DNA of 34,172 bases from a virus. The translations under genes and the position numbers were made by a program. Location of the stretch: the UHGV virus genome UHGV-2104448. One strand, given 5' to 3'. The notes beneath the pieces were generated by a model. It made no database searches, was not told where the DNA came from, and worked only from the letters and a program-made list of their open reading frames with translations. Each line of letters starts with the position of its first letter. The first letter of the stretch is position 1. Positions 1 through 34,172 of this stretch are shown here, piece by piece.

Positions 1-423
1 TTACGTGGGTAGGATCACTCTGTTCGGACCACTGACAAGAGCATACTTATATTCATCATCCAGTTTGATTACATTATAGCCACCATAGAAGGGGCCAAAA
101 AACGAAACCTTCAACGCTGCAGTTTTAGTATCTCCAGTAAAGTATGCTTTACCTTCGCTCTCGCTCCATTTATTTTTCGTTGGATCGTATCCACGGTTAA
201 GTACACGAATCCCTCCGTCGTTCCGTTTTCCATAAGTAGCGCTGACCTGTTCCAGACCACGTTCGAACCGGTTCTCGAGGCGAGCTATTTCATACCATTT
301 TCCGAGGTAGCGGTTGGCGTCAAAATTTGTAATCGGCTGCACACCTTTAGGTGGTGTCGGGGCCTTACATGCTATAAGAGTGAAAGAGAGTGCAATGCCA
401 GTCAACACAGGCCATAACTTCAT
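1..423 (-). CDS. Lipocalin-family outer-membrane lipoprotein (Blc-like)
   Basis: 140-aa ORF with an N-terminal signal peptide and lipobox (LIAC). Lipocalin motifs are present: NFDANRYLGKWYEIARLENRFERG and KVSFFGPFYGGYNVI. Stop codon lies at positions 1-3. Shorter at the C-terminus than E. coli Blc as I recall it. Confidence 0.8.
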   Translation of the reverse strand: MKLWPVLTGIALSFTLIACKAPTPPKGVQPITNFDANRYLGKWYEIARLENRFERGLEQVSATYGKRNDGGIRVLNRGYDPTKNKWSESEGKAYFTGDTKTAALKVSFFGPFYGGYNVIKLDDEYKYALVSGPNRVILPT

Positions 424-615
424 AATAAATCCTGTACTTTTGATAGTTGAAAGTAAGTATGAAAGATAGATGATTACGACCGATCACTTAAAGAACTTTC
501 ATACTATATTAGGAATAGTCCATAACAGAAAAATTGTCAGTGATGACGCCAGAAAGGCAATTTATTCCGTGCACTACACAGTTTATCTGTTAATGAATTA
601 GTCAAGGGGGAGGAT

Positions 616-1575
616 ATGATAAAAAAACCTGTGATTGGAATCAGCGGTTGTTTGGCCGGTTCTGCTGTTCGTTTTGATGGTGGTCACAAAAGAGCTGACT
701 TTTTAATGGACAAATTAGTGGAATGGGTAACATTCAGACCAGTATGTCCGGAAATGGCTATAGGGCTGCCAGTTCCGCGTCCTGCTCTACGTCTTGTGCG
801 CTCGACGCAAGGAAATATACGGATGTGTTTCAGCCACGACCAGAATGAGGATGTGACAGAGAGAATGACAGAGTTTAGTCGTTCTTATATGGACAAATTA
901 AAGGATGTATCGGGGTTTGTGGTTTGTGCTAAATCTCCCAGCTGTGGCATGGAGCGCGTGCGTGTCTATGATGAAAATGGTAATCGAGGTCGTAAAGATG
1001 GAGTGGGACTATTTACGAGCACTTTGATGGAAAAGTTTTCCTGGCTACCGGTTGAAGAGGATGGGCGATTACATGATCCAGTGCTTCGTGAGAATTTTGT
1101 TGAAAGAGTTTTTGCTTTGCATGAACTCAATCACCTTTACAAGGAGAGATTATCAAGAAGAGAGTTATTAGCTTTTCATAGTCGTTATAAGCTTCAGTTG
1201 TTGGCGCATAGTCAGGCAGGCTATAAAGATATGGGACCATTTGTGGCTGCAATACACGAGTGGGCGGACCTTGAATCATACTTTGAGGTGTATCGTGATA
1301 AGCTGATGGCGATTCTCAGAAAACCTGCATCACGTAAAAATCACACGAATGTACTGATGCATATACAGGGGTATTTTAGTAACTACTTAAGTACACGCCA
1401 GCGTAAAGAGTTGAGCGAGGTTATACTTAACTATCGTTCTGGCACATTGCCTCTTCTTGCGCCGTTGACTCTGCTGAAGCATTATCTGGGTGAGTATCCT
1501 AATGATTACTTGCTTACACAGAATTACTTCGATCCCTATCCGGAAGAACTGGCTTTAAGGCTGATGGTGAATTAA
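616..1575 (+). CDS. DUF523 (TudS-like, putative 4Fe-4S) / DUF1722 two-domain protein, YbgA-like
   Basis: 319 aa with a strong RBS (AAGGGGGAGG) upstream. Cysteines at residues 12, 44 and 104 match the spacing of the three cluster-ligating cysteines of the DUF523/TudS family. The C-terminal half resembles DUF1722. Family assignment is from motif recall only. Confidence 0.6.
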   Translation: MIKKPVIGISGCLAGSAVRFDGGHKRADFLMDKLVEWVTFRPVCPEMAIGLPVPRPALRLVRSTQGNIRMCFSHDQNEDVTERMTEFSRSYMDKLKDVSGFVVCAKSPSCGMERVRVYDENGNRGRKDGVGLFTSTLMEKFSWLPVEEDGRLHDPVLRENFVERVFALHELNHLYKERLSRRELLAFHSRYKLQLLAHSQAGYKDMGPFVAAIHEWADLESYFEVYRDKLMAILRKPASRKNHTNVLMHIQGYFSNYLSTRQRKELSEVILNYRSGTLPLLAPLTLLKHYLGEYPNDYLLTQNYFDPYPEELALRLMVN

Positions 1576-2054
1576 CTGTATGCGATATCATCTGAAAGTG
1601 ATGAGTTCCTGCATGCAGGATATTTACAATCGTAAAAACTACACTATGATACCCATAGTGTCAGTTTGTATAAAAATCCTGTTCACGCTGAAGAAAATAT
1701 TGAGATGCAATTTAATGTTGGTAAATATACCAGCCCCAAAATATTTTATTCAATCTGTTTTTATATAAAGATATTTCAAGTGAATATTAAGAGCATATAA
1801 TATTATTATTGCACGCAGCTATTATAATATAACAGATTAGTTTAATGATTTTTTGCGAGTTAAACACATGCTTTTATAGTTGTGATGCAATGAGATTTTC
1901 CTTATTGTTGAACTGGCGAATATTGATTATCCACCTATACTTACCTGGTGTAACCCCAATGATATCAGGTGGATAATATGCCATACATATGTTCTATGGT
2001 GATGCCTCTAATTAGTTGAATCTGATGTATAATACGGGCTTTTGAGGTTATCTC

Positions 2055-2327
2055 ATGGCCAGAGTTAATATTCATTGTCCCCGTTGTCAGTCAGCTCAGG
2101 TTTACCGCCATGGTCAGAACCCTAAAGGCCGTGACAGATTTCGCTGCCGTGACTGCCACCGTGTGTTTCAGCTCACTTATACTTATCAAGCACGTAAGCC
2201 GGGTATGAAAGAGCTGATAACTGAAATGGCCTTTAATGGTGCCGGGGTTCGCGATACCGCCAGGACAATGAAAATTGGTATTAACACCGTCATCCGGACT
2301 TTAAAAAACTCGCGCCAAAGCGAATAA
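2055..2327 (+). CDS. insA: IS1-family InsA (transposition repressor / N-terminal part of InsAB')
   Basis: 90 aa with a CPRC...CRDC zinc finger and an HTH. About 50% similar to classical IS1 InsA by recall, so a divergent IS1 relative. Confidence 0.85.
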   Translation: MARVNIHCPRCQSAQVYRHGQNPKGRDRFRCRDCHRVFQLTYTYQARKPGMKELITEMAFNGAGVRDTARTMKIGINTVIRTLKNSRQSE

Positions 2328-2749
2328 CTTCTTCGCCTGTTGCCCATGCTGATGTGGCGCTTATCTGCGAGCTTGATGAGCAATAGAGCTACGTTGGCAG
2401 TAAAGCCCGGCAACACTGGCTCTGGTACGCGTACAACACCAAAACAGGCGGTGTACTGGCCTACACTTTTGGTCCCCGAACCGATCAAACGTGCCGGGAG
2501 CTACTGGCACTGCTTACACCCTTCAACATCGGCATGCTGACCAGCGATGACTGGGGCAGCTATGGCCGGGAGGTGCCGAAGAATAAGCATCTGACCGGCA
2601 AAATATTCACCCAACGCATTGAGCGTAATAATCTGACGCTACGCACCCGCATTAAGCGGTTGGCTCGTAAAATAATCTGCTTCTCACGCTCAGTTGAGAT
2701 CCACGAAAAAGTGATCGGAGCGTTTATCGAAAAACACATGTTCTACTAA
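2303..2749 (+). pseudogene. insB: IS1-family insB transposase frame interrupted by an in-frame amber codon
   Basis: The -1 frame relative to insA, entered at the A6C motif, reads ...HADVALICELDEQ*SYVGSKARQHWLWYAYN... The TAG at 2384-2386 replaces the conserved Trp of the DEQW motif. The remainder, to the stop at 2747-2749, is InsB-like. Confidence 0.75.
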
Positions 2750-2768
2750 TTGGATGCACTACCATCAC

Positions 2769-3145
2769 TTGCATGTCTTGCTATCTTATCTTCAGAGAAA
2801 ATAGTGCAAAGGTTTTTATTTGGGTGTCTTAATAGTTTAGGAAGTAAAGTTAAGGCTATTATCCACAAGGATATATCTGCAACATGGAGACTTTGTGATA
2901 TATCTTCAAGACTGTGCCTGAGTGAAAGTTTGTTAAAAAGAAAATTAAAACACGAAGGCTTATCATTTGGTAAACTAAATCTTGAAGAGCGAATGGTGAT
3001 GGCGGAAAGCTTATTAAGCTACAATTTATATTCTGTTGGGAAAGTTGCTGAGATATGCGGTTATGAAAATACGTCATATTTTGTAAGTGTTTTCAGAAGA
3101 TATTTTGGTGTTCCTCTCCACAAATATTCATCAAGATTTTTTTAG
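2769..3145 (+). pseudogene. AraC-family regulator, C-terminal HTH domain only (5' part replaced by the IS1 element)
   Basis: The ORF translation carries a typical AraC/XylS HTH (…ERMVMAESLL…VGKVAEICGYENTSYFVSVFRRYFGVPLHKY), similar to the AppY/EnvY group. The reading frame runs into the IS1 right end, and no N-terminal domain was recognised. Confidence 0.7.
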
Positions 3146-3223
3146 AAAAACACATGATGTAACGTGATGCGATTTAATGATTTTGTAATTTTCGTATTTG
3201 ATAATTTTATGATGCTTTCAGCT

Positions 3224-3255
3224 ACGCCAGAATAATCGCTGGCGTTTTTCTTTTT
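3224..3255 (+). terminator. Intrinsic terminator-like hairpin between the AraC fragment and the holin
   Basis: 7-bp stem ACGCCAG / CTGGCGT with an 8-nt loop, followed by TTTTTCTTTTT. Confidence 0.5.
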
Positions 3256-3351
3256 GAATAGATGTTCAGGCCTTACGCTAATGTAACTTCTATACCTTTC
3301 CCTCTTCGTTCCGAACCGTGTATACCATCCGTTATTTGCGGAGGTGAGGCT

Positions 3352-3567
3352 ATGAAATCCATGGACAAGTTAACAACGGGCATTGCCTACGGCACCTCCG
3401 CAGGCAGTGCTGGCTACTGGTTTTTACAGTGGCTTGATCAGGTCAGTCCATCACAGTGGGCTGCTATTGGTGTGCTGGGAAGTCTGGTTCTGGGCTTTCT
3501 GACTTACCTGACGAATCTGTACTTCAAAATAAGAGAAGACAAGCGTAAAGCTGCGCGGGGAGAGTAA
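3352..3567 (+). CDS. essQ: Class II holin (pinholin, S21-like) with dual-start motif
   Basis: 71 aa, [71 protein letters not shown], closely matching phage 21 S21 as I recall it. Two start codons (Met1-Lys-Ser-Met4) preceded by the RBS GGAGGTGAGG. The upstream extension to 3262 in the ORF track is probably not translated. Confidence 0.85.
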
Positions 3568-3571
3568 TTCA

Positions 3572-3886
3572 ATGACTCAAAACTATGAACTGATTGTGAA
3601 AGGGATCCGCAATTTTGAGAATAAAGTTACGGTAATCTTAACGTTACAGGACAAAGAACGTTTTGCCGGTGAAATTTTTGACCTGGACATCTCGCTGGAC
3701 CGTGTTGAAGGTGCCGCGCTGGAGTTTTGTGAGGCAGTTGCCAGAAGGAGCATCAGACAGGTCTTCCTGGATGTTGCTGCCGGGTTATGTGAAGGGGACG
3801 AGCTGTTGCCAGAAACGCGACCCTGTTCAGAGGCTCGGTATACCATAAAAATTAACAGTTCAGATAACTCGATTACGGGTTGTTAG
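3572..3886 (+). CDS. ydfR: DUF1327-family protein (YdfR-like), inserted between holin and endolysin
   Basis: 104-aa ORF occupying the position of ydfR in the Qin-type lysis cassette. No functional motif recognised. Confidence 0.65.
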   Translation: MTQNYELIVKGIRNFENKVTVILTLQDKERFAGEIFDLDISLDRVEGAALEFCEAVARRSIRQVFLDVAAGLCEGDELLPETRPCSEARYTIKINSSDNSITGC

Positions 3887-6213: not shown

Positions 6214-6390
6214 ATGATGAATATTGAAAACTTAAAAACAAAAGCAGAAGCAGATATTTCTGAATATATAACAAAAAAAATTATTGAACTTAAGAAAAAG
6301 ACCGGGAAAGAAGTTACCAGTATTCAGTTTACCGCACGGGAAAAAATGACGGGTCTTGAAAGCTATGATGTCAAGATTAATTTAATCTGA
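6214..6390 (+). CDS. gnsB: GnsA/GnsB-family small protein
   Basis: 58 aa, MMNIENLKTKAEADISEYITKKIIELKKKTGKEVTSIQFTAREKMTGLESYDVKINLI, with RBS AAAAGAGGAA. Below the ORF-track size cut-off; found by reading the DNA. Confidence 0.7.
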   Translation: MMNIENLKTKAEADISEYITKKIIELKKKTGKEVTSIQFTAREKMTGLESYDVKINLI

Positions 6391-30962: not shown

Positions 30963-31553
30963 TTATATGTCAGGTGTCTGAAGTTTTGCTTTGGCTCTTA
31001 AAATGGTTTGCCGCGAGGTTTTGAATTCCCGGGCAATGGCACTTATACTTACACCTGACTTAATTCGTTCGAATACCACCTGTTTCTGTTCTTCATTTAA
31101 CACAGGTGGTCGACCAAAACGTTTCCCTGCGCCGCGGGCTCTTACTATCCCGGAATGAGTGCGTTCAAGTAAAAGGTCTCGTTCAAATTCAGCGACTGCT
31201 GAAATTACTTGCATCATCATTTTTCCTGTTGGACTGGTCAGGTCAATGCCACCCAATGCTAAGCAATGCACTCTGATACCTGTTTCGGTCAGTTGTTCCA
31301 CTGTTTTCCTGATATCCATTGCATTACAACCAAGGCGATCCAGTTTTGTCACAATCAATTGATCACCACATTTCAGGCGAGCAAGCAACCGGTTAAAACC
31401 AGGACGCTCACTGGTTGCTGCTGAGCCGCTAATGTGTTCTTCGATTATTTGCTGAGGTTTGATTTTAAAACCTGCACTTTCGATTTCCCGGCGTTGATTT
31501 TCGGTGGTCTGATCCAGCGTTGATATCCGACAGTAAGCAAAAATTCGAGACAT
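30963..31553 (-). CDS. pinQ: Serine recombinase, Pin/Gin/Hin invertase family
   Basis: 196 aa with the N-terminal catalytic-serine motif (YCRISTLDQ), a resolvase-type catalytic domain and a C-terminal HTH. Convergent with stf. Confidence 0.85.
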
Positions 31554-31869
31554 AGTGAGACTCTATACGAAATTGGTGTTCATATCATAATGCATCTCAG
31601 AAAATAATTATGATTATTTTTGTGCATATTTGTATGTACACGTTCGAAAATAAACGAATGCGTATGCAACCCCGTAATTTTGGTGAGACCCAAAATCGAT
31701 TTTGTGAAAAATAGCTTTAACTCGGTTTGTTTTTCGAGTTCCGGGCGGACTCAAGGAAGAAGAATAGTGTTGCGTGTTATTTTAACCAGATTTCAAGTTG
31801 TTTGGTCGTGGAAAAGTGGAGCAAAATGTTGTTAAAGTGAAAAAATGATAAAAAAGTAAGTTTATTATA

Positions 31870-32103
31870 TTACATTTTACCATTTAAATTTTGGTTATCT
31901 TTAAGAACTGATATCGCTGTTTGTAATAATTCTTTGTTATCCAGCCATGATTTTTTCTTTATGTTTCCTTCAATGTAATCAAGCAATGTTCTGGTATTGA
32001 TAGGTCTTCCCTGTTTTGCTACTTCCACTACAGCATCCCCTAGGATAATTCTTACTTCAGGAAGCTGCGCAGGGAACCACTTTAGGGTGTCTTTTGATTT
32101 CAT
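31870..32103 (-). CDS. ydfK: Small prophage protein YdfK/YnaE-like
   Basis: 77 aa from the Met with the AAGGAA RBS (MKSKDTLKWFPAQLPEVRIILGDAVVEVAKQGRPINTRTLLDY…). The ORF track allows an upstream start at 32136. Confidence 0.6.
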   Translation of the reverse strand: MKSKDTLKWFPAQLPEVRIILGDAVVEVAKQGRPINTRTLLDYIEGNIKKKSWLDNKELLQTAISVLKDNQNLNGKM

Positions 32104-32888
32104 GAAGATATTCCTTAAAATATTATTGATTTTCATTGCGATATTGTATGTCTGATTCAGGATATGTTGACTTATACATCGGTTTTGTCTGGGTTATTGG
32201 ATATGCCAATCCCTAATTTTATTAGGGCATGACTAAAAATGCTGAATATGATAAGGAGAGATGTGATTATCAGTATGCTGTTCATATAGCCTCGAATTAG
32301 TAATGTGTTATATATGATATAGTTGACAATTTTTATCTTGGGTGTTCTTAAAGTTCGTAGATAAACATTGTCGTTTCAGGTATACAGGAATGCTAACAGG
32401 TGGCAGCAAAAATCAGGCGGTTTATGGCGCAAACTGAAGCGGCAACTGCAAACTATCTTATGCAGAGACTCTACACGGATTGGGTTTAAAAGTATACATA
32501 GATAACAGTTTTTATCTGAAAAAGAAAAATATCAAGGTGATATAGCCTATATGCCTTTAATGCGGAGGAATGAATGTGATGGGAGTGATGTATCTGAATA
32601 GTTGAAAAACCGCAGACACGCCTTATGCAAGAACGTGCTGCGGTTGGCTGGTAAATTTTTCGATAGTGTGAGTATTGAATGATTTCCAGCCGTTCTTGAT
32701 TTTACGCATAAATCCATGAAAAAACTACTTATCTGTTGGGGAGTTTTTTTGGGGCATATATGGGACAGAAATAGGCCCCAGATAGACACTGAGATCGAAC
32801 TTAGGATGCTTTTTAAAAAATGCAACTATCTGAAAAAACCTAGAAAACGCCAAGGAAACCACAGGATGGGAAAAAACACCTGTGAATT

Positions 32889-34172
32889 ATGGATTTCCAG
32901 TTATATTCGCTCGGCGCAGCGTTAGTGTTTCATGAAATATTTTTTCCTGAATCATCAACGGCAATGGCGTTAATTCTGGCAATGGGAACCTACGGTGCAG
33001 GTTATGTGGCGCGTATTGTCGGAGCATTTATTTTCGGCAAAATGGGCGACAGAATAGGGCGTAAAAAAGTGCTCTTTATTACCATCACCATGATGGGGAT
33101 CTGTACCACCTTAATTGGTGTGTTACCGACCTATGCACAGATTGGTGTTTTTGCCCCCATCTTGCTGGTGACGCTGCGTATTATTCAGGGATTGGGTGCA
33201 GGTGCGGAAATTTCCGGTGCCGGTACGATGCTGGCGGAATATGCGCCAAAAGGTAAGCGCGGAATTATCTCCTCATTTGTGGCTATGGGAACTAACTGCG
33301 GAACTTTAAGCGCAACGGCAATCTGGGCCTTTATGTTCTTCATTCTCAGTAAAGAGGAACTGCTGGCGTGGGGATGGCGTATACCGTTCCTGGCGAGCGT
33401 TGTCGTGATGGTCTTTGCTATCTGGTTGCGTATGAATCTGAAAGAAAGCCCGGTTTTTGAGAAGGTTAACGACAGCAACCAACCGACAGCAAAACCTGCA
33501 CTTGCTGGTAGCATGTTCCAGAGCAAATCCTTCTGGCTGGCAACAGGGCTGCGTTTTGGTCAGGCGGGTAACTCAGGTTTAATTCAGACTTTCCTTGCGG
33601 GCTATTTAGTGCAGACGTTATTGTTTAACAAAGCAATTCCAACAGATGCATTGATGATCAGTTCGATTCTCGGCTTTATGACCATTCCGTTCCTTGGTTG
33701 GTTATCCGATAAAATTGGTCGCCGGATCCCGTATATTATTATGAATACCTCCGCGATTGTGCTGGCATGGCCAATGCTTTCTATCATCGTAGATAAAAGC
33801 TATGCCCCGAGCACCATTATGGTTGCACTGATTGTGATTCATAACTGTGCGGTGCTGGGATTATTTGCTCTGGAAAATATTACCATGGCAGAAATGTTCG
33901 GCTGTAAAAACCGTTTTACCCGGATGGCTATTTCTAAAGAAATTGGTGGTCTTATCGCTTCCGGTTTTGGTCCTATCCTGGCGGGTATTTTCTGCACCAT
34001 GACGGAATCCTGGTATCCGATCGCCATTATGATCATGGCATATTCAGTGATTGGTTTAATCTCTGCGCTGAAAATGCCAGAAGTGAAAGACCGTGATTTA
34101 AGTGCGCTGGAAGACGCCGCGGAAGATCAACCGCGTGTTGTAAGAGCTGCGCAACCTTCCAGAAGTCTGTAA
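32889..34172 (+). CDS. ydfJ: MFS transporter, N-terminally truncated (host gene at the prophage junction)
   Basis: 427 aa and highly hydrophobic, with the MFS loop motif GKMGDRIGRKKVL. The ORF begins inside what should be TM2, so TM1 is missing, consistent with interruption of the gene by prophage integration. Confidence 0.8.
   Translation: MDFQLYSLGAALVFHEIFFPESSTAMALILAMGTYGAGYVARIVGAFIFGKMGDRIGRKKVLFITITMMGICTTLIGVLPTYAQIGVFAPILLVTLRIIQGLGAGAEISGAGTMLAEYAPKGKRGIISSFVAMGTNCGTLSATAIWAFMFFILSKEELLAWGWRIPFLASVVVMVFAIWLRMNLKESPVFEKVNDSNQPTAKPALAGSMFQSKSFWLATGLRFGQAGNSGLIQTFLAGYLVQTLLFNKAIPTDALMISSILGFMTIPFLGWLSDKIGRRIPYIIMNTSAIVLAWPMLSIIVDKSYAPSTIMVALIVIHNCAVLGLFALENITMAEMFGCKNRFTRMAISKEIGGLIASGFGPILAGIFCTMTESWYPIAIMIMAYSVIGLISALKMPEVKDRDLSALEDAAEDQPRVVRAAQPSRSL

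Follow-up and report, generated by a model that had tools for sequence, protein, structure and literature searches.

The open reading frame at positions 616-1575 of the window (the whole 34,172-nucleotide stretch of viral DNA analyzed here) is very probably an intact RudS-family gene in a decayed Escherichia coli prophage, and its function is already known. RudS is the name given by Jamontas et al. (2024) to the fusion of a TudS domain with a DUF1722 domain, a [4Fe-4S] desulfidase that converts 4-thiouridine (s4U) in tRNA to uridine (PMC11417400). The frame, called rudS here, runs uninterrupted from an ATG start to a TAA stop on the + strand, and a good Shine-Dalgarno sequence, AAGGGGGAGGATATG, is located upstream of the ATG. 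Its 319-residue product is 100% identical to the representative protein of a cluster with 2,556 members. It can be aligned without gaps, over all 319 residues, with RudS_vir (gp66 of Escherichia phage 1H12), at 93% identity and 98% similarity. The features of the locus are as follows.

1-17 (no strand): end of an IS3 element (the tip of its right inverted repeat), which otherwise lies just beyond the window
1-423 (- strand): truncated gene for a blc-like lipocalin lipoprotein, a 140-aa ORF in which about residues 1-138 of the 174-aa protein are left
424-615 (no strand): intergenic region between the divergent blc and rudS genes, with the Shine-Dalgarno sequence AAGGGGGAGG at about 604-613
616-1575 (+ strand): rudS, an intact TudS-DUF1722 fusion and predicted [4Fe-4S] tRNA 4-thiouridine desulfidase
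634-1062 (+ strand): TudS catalytic domain (PF04463, former DUF523), residues 7-149
649-651 (+ strand): codon of Cys12, predicted cluster ligand 1, aligned with TudS Cys10
745-753 (+ strand): codons of Cys44-Pro45-Glu46, predicted ligand 2 and catalytic glutamate, the CPE motif of TudS (Cys43-Glu45)
934-948 (+ strand): codons of Ser107-Pro108-Ser109-Cys110-Gly111, the SPSCG motif of TudS, with the predicted catalytic serines and predicted ligand 3 (Cys110)
1189-1542 (+ strand): DUF1722 domain (PF08349), residues 192-309, all-helical in the structure model
1576-1977 (no strand): AT-rich spacer (~30-36% G+C) from rudS to the AraC-like gene, collinear with the intact SC516 prophage
1998-2763 (+ strand): IS1-family element, with InsA domains on the ORF at 2055-2327; annotated in RefSeq as an IS1 family transposase that has an internal stop
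2764-3145 (+ strand): remnant of a YdeO/GadX-type AraC-family regulator with the C-terminal HTH, about residues 113-237 (Pfam HTH_18 and HTH_AraC)
3224-3245 (+ strand): terminator-like hairpin and T-run, just upstream of the holin gene
3352-3567 (+ strand): class II (S21-type) holin, with which the lysis cassette begins and the cargo slot ends on its downstream side (Pfam Phage_holin_2_1, E = 1e-34; also RefSeq and tblastn)

The initial annotation had described the product as a fusion of a TudS-like (DUF523) domain with DUF1722 and had proposed a Pfam search, which matched both families strongly. PF04463 ('2-thiour_desulf') covers residues 7-149 with an E value of 3.1e-40 and a score of 137.9 bits (cut-off, 34.7), and PF08349 covers residues 192-309 with an E value of 1.9e-40 and 138.2 bits (cut-off, 22.5). 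Each profile is covered in full (1-141 of 141 and 1-117 of 117), and both matches are far past chance. The RefSeq name of the product is 'YbgA family protein'. The PHROGs entry for the family, phrog_3275, is labeled "unknown function".

The cluster ligands had initially been placed at Cys12, Cys44, and Cys104. All three cysteines are present, and the first two are predicted ligands, but the alignments point to Cys110 rather than Cys104 as the third. In a profile alignment with TudS (PDB 6Z92; E = 1.3e-14), residues Cys10, Cys43, and Cys104 of TudS correspond to Cys12, Cys44, and Cys110 of the window protein, and 104 is thus the number of this ligand in TudS. Position 104 of the window protein (codon 925-927) is variable in an alignment of 85 homologous sequences, with Cys in 18 and Lys in 41. 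In comparison, Cys110 is found in 82/85 sequences. Cys12, Cys44, Glu46, Arg55, and Ser107 are each conserved in 84/85, Pro45 in 85/85, and Ser109 in 78/85. The published table lists Cys12, Cys44, and Cys110 for RudS_vir, and the same triad for RudS_ST of Salmonella (PMC11417400). The residues essential in RudS_KT of Pseudomonas putida include Glu51, Ser111, Ser113, and Arg60 (PMC11417400). Each essential residue of RudS_KT has a counterpart in the window protein (Cys12, Cys44, Cys110, Glu46, Ser107, Ser109, and Arg55, all present in at least 78/85 homologs), with the equivalence of the Glu, Ser, and Arg residues taken from their constant offset relative to the cysteines.

The AlphaFold model of RudS (pLDDT 95.8, pTM 0.92) indicates a TudS-like fold for the catalytic domain. 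A Foldseek search of the PDB finds TudS entries as the best five matches, all with a probability of 1.00 and with target-normalized TM-scores of 0.72-0.76, and the next match has an E value of 0.28. The DUF1722 part of the model consists of helices over residues 155 to 300 (pLDDT ~97), and no solved structural relative of this domain was found in the PDB with Foldseek. The structure prediction that had been suggested as a check on the annotation therefore supports the TudS fold, while the three-Cys site is at 12/44/110 by alignment and not at 12/44/104. From the alignment and the fold together, window RudS is predicted to bind a [4Fe-4S] cluster.

A prophage copy of rudS is carried by 1,136 of 5,426 complete E. 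coli genomes (21%), counted at nucleotide identity of at least 90%. All 87 of the 87 (pro)phage alleles compared are intact, with invariant catalytic residues and dN/dS values of 0.11-0.23. The gene, including its DUF1722 portion, is under purifying selection.

Stx phages carry toxin genes in the slot between Q and the lysis genes, and rudS had been assigned to this slot. The assignment is correct for intact relatives. In lambdoid phages, the interval from the Q antiterminator and its terminator to the holin contains three cargo genes: the blc lipocalin gene, rudS, and the gene of an AraC regulator of the YdeO/GadX type. The order Q-blc(-)-rudS-AraC-like-holin is observed in 73 of 80 IMG/VR viral contigs, in all five E. 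coli genomes sampled (5/5), and in two isolated phages. In the survey of this interval that had been called for, Q is located 1250 bp upstream in 79/80 of the IMG/VR loci, and a strong terminator follows Q in phage 1H12. In the intact phages, late transcription modified by Q must therefore extend across rudS, in addition to transcription from any promoter that rudS itself has. The window retains the holin downstream of rudS, in agreement with the description of the gene as prophage cargo adjoining the lysis cassette, but Q, pR', and tR' are deleted and an IS3 stands in their place, so that rudS here has lost its Q-controlled setting. The linkage to photolyase and MerR genes known for chromosomal homologs does not extend to the phage module. 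The neighbors of phage rudS are blc, the AraC-like gene, Q, and the holin, and no MerR or phr gene is present in the window, the two phages, or the five E. coli genomes.

The prophage in the window has decayed, with the loss of Q and the late promoter and with both neighbors of rudS broken by insertion sequences. Neither the window nor, at the near-identical locus of strain CX12, the upstream 14 kb contains a Q homolog. In this strain window position 1 is preceded, at a distance of 14 bases, by the end of an IS3 transposase coding sequence, and ...CCATATTACGTGGGTAGGATCA continues into window positions 1-17. Matches in genomes without this IS3 begin at query base 18. The 3' end of blc is missing because of the IS3 insertion. 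The truncated product matches Pfam Lipocalin_2 with an E value of 3.9e-30 over profile positions 2-107 of 146, and NCBIfam Blc over positions 1-136 of 176 with a score under the cut-off. With the intact Blc of phage 1H12 as the tblastn query, residues 1-138 align at 96%, and RefSeq lists the window blc as a partial pseudogene.

On the other side of rudS, the AraC-like gene (ATG at 1978) is interrupted by the IS1 element behind its seventh codon, and about 330 bp of the gene are lost, with the breakpoints taken from an alignment to the intact locus of strain SC516. The best NCBIfam match of the remnant is YdeO, and residues 113-237 align at 86% by tblastn. This third gene of the cargo module is therefore inactivated in the window. 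The hairpin upstream of the holin is also found in phage 1H12 (L003 9072-9093). A weak hairpin is located at 1641-1661, within the spacer 3' of rudS. An Rfam scan of positions 1-3600 found no RNA elements at E values up to 0.1.

The promoter of rudS itself presumably lies within 424-615. This 192-bp region has a mean column identity of 97% in six (pro)phage copies, some of which are only 92% identical in their coding sequences, and it contains a perfect 10-nt inverted repeat (456-465 and 496-505). As Q and the late promoter are lost, only a promoter in this conserved region could drive rudS in the window. A sigma-70 scan of positions 1-3400 gave 9 sites, compared to 8.5 expected from shuffles, so that no promoter can be claimed, and promoter-like matches within 424-615 (for example at 447-474) are no commoner than in shuffled sequence. 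With no promoter above chance and with Q and pR' absent, rudS may be silent in this strain. The region upstream of phage rudS shows no conservation in alignments with the chromosomal upstream regions of Kluyvera, Enterobacter, and Citrobacter, and a regulatory site shared by phage and chromosome is not supported.

A silent rudS could be a mere passenger, an intact frame stranded in a decaying prophage and contributing to neither phage nor host. We consider this unlikely for the window gene. It would fit the deletion of the early region together with Q and the late promoter, the truncation of blc by IS3, the destruction of the AraC-like gene by IS1 and a deletion, and the lack of a convincing promoter upstream of rudS. 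Moreover, the flanks of rudS are AT-rich, as is typical of H-NS-silenced DNA, and the gene may be silenced in this way. On the other hand, window RudS is intact and has the same sequence as the representative of the 2,556-member cluster, and rudS is under purifying selection across its alleles. Conservation of the 192-bp upstream region exceeds that of the coding sequence (97% compared to 92%), which suggests that a functional promoter/operator has been retained, and the gene may be expressed in the strain.

The main reading, an intact RudS-family gene with a known function in tRNA desulfidation, agrees with published work. All six RudS genes expressed in E. coli lowered tRNA s4U, RudS_vir among them, which was assayed by plasmid overexpression only (PMC11417400). 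The activity of RudS_KT was demonstrated in vitro and by mutagenesis, and its DUF1722 domain is a tRNA-binding module (PMC11417400). Action on thiolated tRNA, as the initial annotation had envisaged, is thus consistent with the s4U loss caused by RudS proteins, including the 93%-identical RudS_vir; its statement that no such role was established for a prophage copy is outdated, as the phage copy was named and assayed in 2024 (PMC11417400). Literature searches for a prophage-specific role of RudS or DUF523 gave nothing beyond this paper. With the enzyme class and a phage representative already published, the window gene adds little and is of low novelty.

In the proposed mechanism, the N-terminal TudS domain would hold the [4Fe-4S] cluster on Cys12, Cys44, and Cys110, and the free fourth iron would bind the sulfur of 4-thiouridine. 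Glu46 and Ser107/Ser109 would assist the exchange of sulfur for oxygen, as in TudS, where the reaction goes via a [4Fe-5S] intermediate. The helical C-terminal DUF1722 domain would dock RudS onto the tRNA, so that the substrate would be s4U at tRNA position 8 and the product plain uridine. TudS is absent from E. coli K-12, which has DUF1722 only as a stand-alone protein (YbgA). In this host, RudS expression would lower tRNA s4U and shorten the growth arrest that follows UVA cross-linking of s4U8 to C13. The window allele is expected to be active in the same manner.

It is quite improbable that phage RudS serves mainly in a TudS-like salvage or detoxification of free 4-thiouracil, 4-thiouridine, and 4-thio-UMP rather than on tRNA. 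Of the RudS proteins compared in a uracil-auxotroph assay, RudS_vir gave the shortest 4-thiouracil lag, and its tRNA desulfidation was comparatively low, below that of RudS_ST, despite good and similar protein levels (PMC11417400). The bona fide TudS fold predicted for the catalytic domain would also be compatible with such a role. However, growth support of the kind given by TudS was seen with none of the RudS variants, and each of them reduced tRNA s4U (PMC11417400). In addition, the tRNA-binding DUF1722 domain is full length in the phage protein and under purifying selection with the remainder of rudS. An action on other sulfur modifications, either tRNA bases of the s2U type or, for anti-defense, phosphorothioate DNA, as had also been proposed, is exceedingly unlikely: general desulfidase chemistry and the place among phage accessory genes are its sole support, whereas 2-thiouracil did not sustain growth with any RudS protein tested (PMC11417400), the active-site residues match the 4-thiouracil-specific TudS/RudS site, RudS, Blc, and the AraC-like protein have zero matches to PADLOC defense models, and the module (window locus and two phages) is devoid of Dnd and Ssp genes.

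For RudS as a tRNA s4U desulfidase, a biological role in the phage can be proposed tentatively. It is possible, although doubtful, that phage rudS acts both in the late operon and in lysogenic conversion. In intact phages, where Q and its terminator precede rudS and the holin follows it, prophage induction would turn the gene on, and sunlight/UV is itself a trigger of induction. If so, RudS from the late operon would erase s4U from the host tRNA, and neither UVA cross-linking nor the stringent response that results from it would any longer hold up the synthesis of late phage proteins. The benefit to the host would be UVA tolerance of lysogens, about one in five E. coli strains, in a species otherwise without RudS. 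With blc and the GadX/YdeO-type regulator linked to rudS, the module would amount to a cassette for stress tolerance. As the three-gene cassette is fixed in the slot of the Stx toxin genes, a link between prophage induction and tRNA modification is directly testable. E. coli is not uniformly RudS-free, which matters for "s4U-eraser-free" backgrounds and for UVA comparisons between strains. The survey results on E. coli carriage, the cassette, and the chromosomal pair are modest and would not surprise a specialist.

E. coli K-12 YbgA (b0707, upstream of phr) has the C-terminal DUF1722 domain in common with RudS. In contrast, it has no TudS domain, and window rudS does not adjoin a photolyase gene. 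YbgA left tRNA s4U unchanged (PMC11417400). The YbgA equivalog NF007549 matches window RudS over residues 160-315 only, with 190.5 bits against a cut-off of 237. Identity with stand-alone YbgA, a single-domain protein of ~169 aa, was rejected on the basis of this score and of the extra 150-residue catalytic domain.

TudS, a stand-alone DUF523 desulfidase of thiouracil and 4-thio-UMP, has the same catalytic fold as that modeled for RudS and the same three-Cys, Glu, and SPSCG pattern (PDB 6Z92). It has no DUF1722 domain, its substrates are free bases and nucleotides, and its identity to RudS over the shared domain is ~27%. The NCBIfam TudS-related model gives phage RudS 18 bits, compared to a cut-off of 130.

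The two-domain architecture of window RudS is shared with RudS_KT of P. putida. Chromosomal RudS proteins of the Enterobacterales, in Salmonella (RudS_ST/ORF319, STM1389), Citrobacter, Enterobacter, and Kluyvera, have the same architecture and the same length of 319 aa, with 70-77% identity. The genome scan for rudS relatives used 19 close sequences, and the species found are a sample rather than a census. Chromosomal copies also sit with photolyase (PMC11417400). Photolyase and light-responsive MerR/LitR regulators, which support the UVA story of chromosomal rudS, are missing from the phage module, and the MlrA-like MerR regulator adjoining the Enterobacter relatives is likewise not next to the phage copy. 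In Citrobacter braakii, rudS is the last gene of a cluster that also comprises SDR, amine oxidase, DUF1365, CFA synthase, and DUF3833 genes. An unannotated 175-aa gene in this cluster was considered as a lipocalin partner and rejected, having no similarity to phage Blc. Among the matches listed, the Kluyvera cryocrescens chromosome has the divergent blc(-)/rudS(+) pair as in the phage, and blc and rudS are two genes apart in the chromosomes of Enterobacter, Leclercia, and Huaxiibacter. The blc-rudS pair in enterobacterial chromosomes points to the likely source of the cassette.

The closest characterized relative is RudS_vir (YP_009909557). It has the same 319 residues in length, the same Cys12/Cys44/Cys110 triad, Glu46, and SPSCG motif, and its gene has the same blc and AraC-like neighbors and the same holin-proximal place. 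In 1H12, a viable phage, rudS lies downstream of Q and a terminator, whereas in the window Q is deleted and both neighbors are disrupted. The two proteins differ at 23 amino acids, and none of the differences is at a catalytic position.

The rudS open reading frame (616-1575, + strand) begins with an ATG codon, with AAGGGGGAGG located seven bases 5' of it, and encodes a protein of 319 amino acids. An HMM search finds two strong, full-length Pfam matches in this protein, without overlap: PF04463 (2-thiouracil desulfurase, formerly DUF523) at residues 7-149 (E = 3.1e-40) and PF08349 (DUF1722) at residues 192-309 (E = 1.9e-40). Both are far above chance, and they bear out the initial annotation of a TudS-like (DUF523) domain fused to DUF1722 in one reading frame. 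Fusions of TudS and DUF1722 have been named RudS (Jamontas et al., Nucleic Acids Res 2024; PMC11417400), and the assignment of the window ORF to this family is secure. The RefSeq name of the protein, "YbgA family protein", is loose. The NCBIfam model of E. coli K-12 YbgA, a stand-alone DUF1722 protein, covers residues 160-315 alone, with a score below the cut-off. An E. coli protein of 403 amino acids, found on a single contig, combines a part that is 99% identical to RudS (92% of the query) with a GGDEF domain (PF00990); this fusion more likely reflects rearrangement or mis-assembly than a genuine architecture.

The active site was compared in an alignment of the window protein with 84 homologues (35-93% identity). 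Pro45 is kept in all 85 sequences, Cys12, Cys44, Glu46, Arg55 and Ser107 in 84 each, Cys110 in 82 and Ser109 in 78. Position 104 is Cys in 18 of the 85 and Lys in 41. The profile of this alignment, compared with all PDB sequences, matched TudS alone (6Z92, E = 1.3e-14). In the profile alignment, the TudS motifs SaCLlG, CPE and SPSCG (Cys10, Cys43, Glu45 and Cys104) pair with Cys12, Cys44, Glu46 and Cys110 of the window protein. Cys12 and Cys44 are therefore retained from the cluster ligands originally proposed (Cys12, Cys44 and Cys104), while Cys104 is not: because TudS Cys104 aligns with Cys110, the number 104 is that of TudS and by chance matches an unrelated, variable cysteine here. By this alignment, Cys110 is the predicted third ligand.

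The AlphaFold2 model (84 sequences) is very confident, with a mean pLDDT of 95.8 and a pTM of 0.92. The N-terminal domain is modelled as an alpha/beta fold and the C-terminal half as all-helical. In a Foldseek search of the PDB, the only significant matches are the five TudS chains, at a probability of 1.00, a target-normalised TM-score of 0.72-0.76 and an E-value of about 1e-7.

E. coli strain CX12 (NZ_CP073719.1, from about 2,354,727) matches the window at 99.9% identity. The prophage is lambdoid and decayed, and it occupies the Qin site, with rspAB on one side and ydfJ on the other. Its features, in order, are:

Integrase, excisionase and truncated exonuclease gene
IS3 element, after the exonuclease gene
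1-17, IS3 inverted-repeat tip (last 17 bases)
1-423, - strand, truncated blc lipocalin gene, cut by IS3
616-1575, + strand, rudS
1978-3145, AraC-family gene, destroyed by an IS1-family insertion and a deletion of ~330 bp
1998-2763, IS1-family element, within the AraC-family gene
3352-3567, holin, first in the lysis cassette, then DUF1327 gene, lysozyme and Rz
cspI cluster, lambda-like head and tail genes, pinQ and ydfK
30963-31553, - strand, pinQ invertase

In CX12, IS3 is flanked by what is left of the exonuclease gene and of blc, and the early region from the exonuclease gene through Q has therefore been lost. A homologue of the Q antiterminator was found neither in the window nor in the 14 kb that precede it in CX12. 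The remnants of the AraC-like gene on either side of IS1 are codons 1-7 and about residues 113-237. The segment 5331-6100 has cspI and small cold-shock-like genes 3' of the lysis cassette, and 30963-34172 has pinQ, ydfK and, at the right end, a 5'-truncated ydfJ, which are typical Qin-prophage borders. With Qin-type cargo and borders, the prophage therefore sits at the K-12 Qin site, yet its structural genes are lambda-like. For the holin, a mechanical ORF list gives 101 amino acids (3262-3567), while both the match to S21-type holins and the RefSeq annotation place the start at 3352 (71 amino acids); the 30 codons upstream of this start show no conservation as protein. Searches for defence systems and RNA families gave no match.

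The placement of rudS between Q and the lysis genes, as first proposed, holds for its relatives and not for the window, where Q is absent. The arrangement Q(+), blc(-), rudS(+), AraC-family gene(+), holin(+) is shared by two isolated phages, 1H12 and IdasGreatGrand, and by all five E. coli genomes sampled, which span the identity range; it is complete in 73 of the 80 IMG/VR viral contigs carrying rudS. Q is about 1250 bp upstream of rudS, with blc between them, in 79 of these contigs; the remaining one has only about 630 bp of sequence upstream of rudS. Given this position, Q-modified late transcription would read through rudS in intact phages. In 1H12 (sequence L003), a strong intrinsic terminator (9-bp stem and T8 run, 6226-6249) follows Q within 100 bp, the layout expected for the late promoter and terminator (pR'/tR'). 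A second terminator-like hairpin with a T-run is located directly 5' of the holin (9072-9093 in L003, 3224-3245 in the window). The terminators on both sides of the cargo cassette in 1H12 suggest that it entered the late leader as one unit. One idea is that the Q-controlled position of rudS couples UV-triggered induction to loss of a UVA-sensitive tRNA base. The window retains no Q control, and neither of the partners of rudS in the cassette, blc and the AraC-like gene, is still functional.

The AraC-like gene is intact (237-243 amino acids) in most related prophages. Its sequences fall into at least two types, with 76-86% identity to that of 1H12, and the intact protein is a YdeO/GadX-type regulator. 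PatE, PsrA and PsrB, which are prophage regulators of EHEC, are in the same broad family (PMC10877973). In PHROGs, rudS, blc and the AraC-like gene belong to separate families (phrog_3275, phrog_2809 and phrog_1450, respectively), all tagged 'unknown function'; the label of the first could now become RudS.

The 192-bp region between blc and rudS is 97% conserved even where the coding sequences differ by 8%, which hints at a functional promoter or operator. A consensus promoter scan (1-3400) found none above chance. A perfect 10-nt inverted repeat (456-465 and 496-505, AGTATGAAAG ... CTTTCATACT), its arms 30 nt apart, might serve as an operator or form an RNA hairpin. The phage upstream sequence is not alignable with those of chromosomal rudS genes.

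At a nucleotide identity of at least 90%, rudS is present in 1,136 of 5,426 complete E. coli genomes, with at least 80% of the gene covered in 1,064 of them, and nearly all copies are chromosomal. In the phage collection, the full-length gene is found only in 12 Escherichia lambdoid phages. All 87 extracted (pro)phage alleles are intact with invariant catalytic residues, and their dN/dS relative to the window allele is 0.11-0.23.

The nearest relatives outside E. coli (70-77% identity) are 319-residue chromosomal proteins of Citrobacter, Serratia, Klebsiella, Enterobacter, Kluyvera and Pectobacterium. Kluyvera cryocrescens has the arrangement of the phage: rudS and a blc homologue, with 75% identity to phage Blc, are immediate, divergent neighbours. 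The two genes are kept apart in Enterobacter, Leclercia and Huaxiibacter by genes for an MlrA-like MerR regulator and a transthyretin-like protein, and in Citrobacter braakii rudS is the last gene of a SnoaL, SDR, amine oxidase, DUF1365, CFA synthase, DUF2878 and DUF3833 cluster. Most likely, the phage took blc-rudS as one unit from such a chromosome, without the MerR regulator.

In two Salmonella Derby contigs (rudS at 6001-6960 in L013 and 3704-4663 in L014), a 74%-identical rudS adjoins a DUF1367 phage gene and ttcA, which encodes tRNA 2-thiocytidine synthetase. As ttcA flanks the Rac prophage in E. coli, this rudS is apparently a prophage remnant, and would then be distinct from the SPI-2-linked ORF319. 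The rudS-ttcA adjacency is probably an attachment-site coincidence. Copies at 93% and 74% identity were also observed in contigs labelled Candidatus Nanosynbacter (a MAG, with AraC-like and holin genes as well) and uncultured Clostridiales, respectively, almost certainly mis-binned Enterobacteriaceae or phage contigs.

RudS removes sulfur from 4-thiouridine (s4U) in tRNA, as observed for six orthologues in vivo and for RudS_KT of Pseudomonas putida in vitro. Its catalytic core is the TudS domain with a three-Cys [4Fe-4S] cluster, and DUF1722 binds the tRNA. E. coli overexpressing RudS has a shorter UVA-induced growth delay, and YbgA is inactive on tRNA s4U (PMC11417400). A literature search found nothing further that alters this picture. 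One of the six, RudS_vir, is gp66 of Escherichia phage 1H12 (NC_049947), with Cys12, Cys44 and Cys110 given as ligands. It reduced tRNA s4U, but less than Salmonella RudS_ST at similar protein levels, and gave the shortest lag on 4-thiouracil (PMC11417400). The window protein aligns with RudS_vir along its full 319 residues without gaps, at 93% identity and 98% similarity, and the DNA identity of the genes is 91.9%. The initial statement that no such role is established for a prophage copy is out of date, as the biochemical function is already established for this phage protein.
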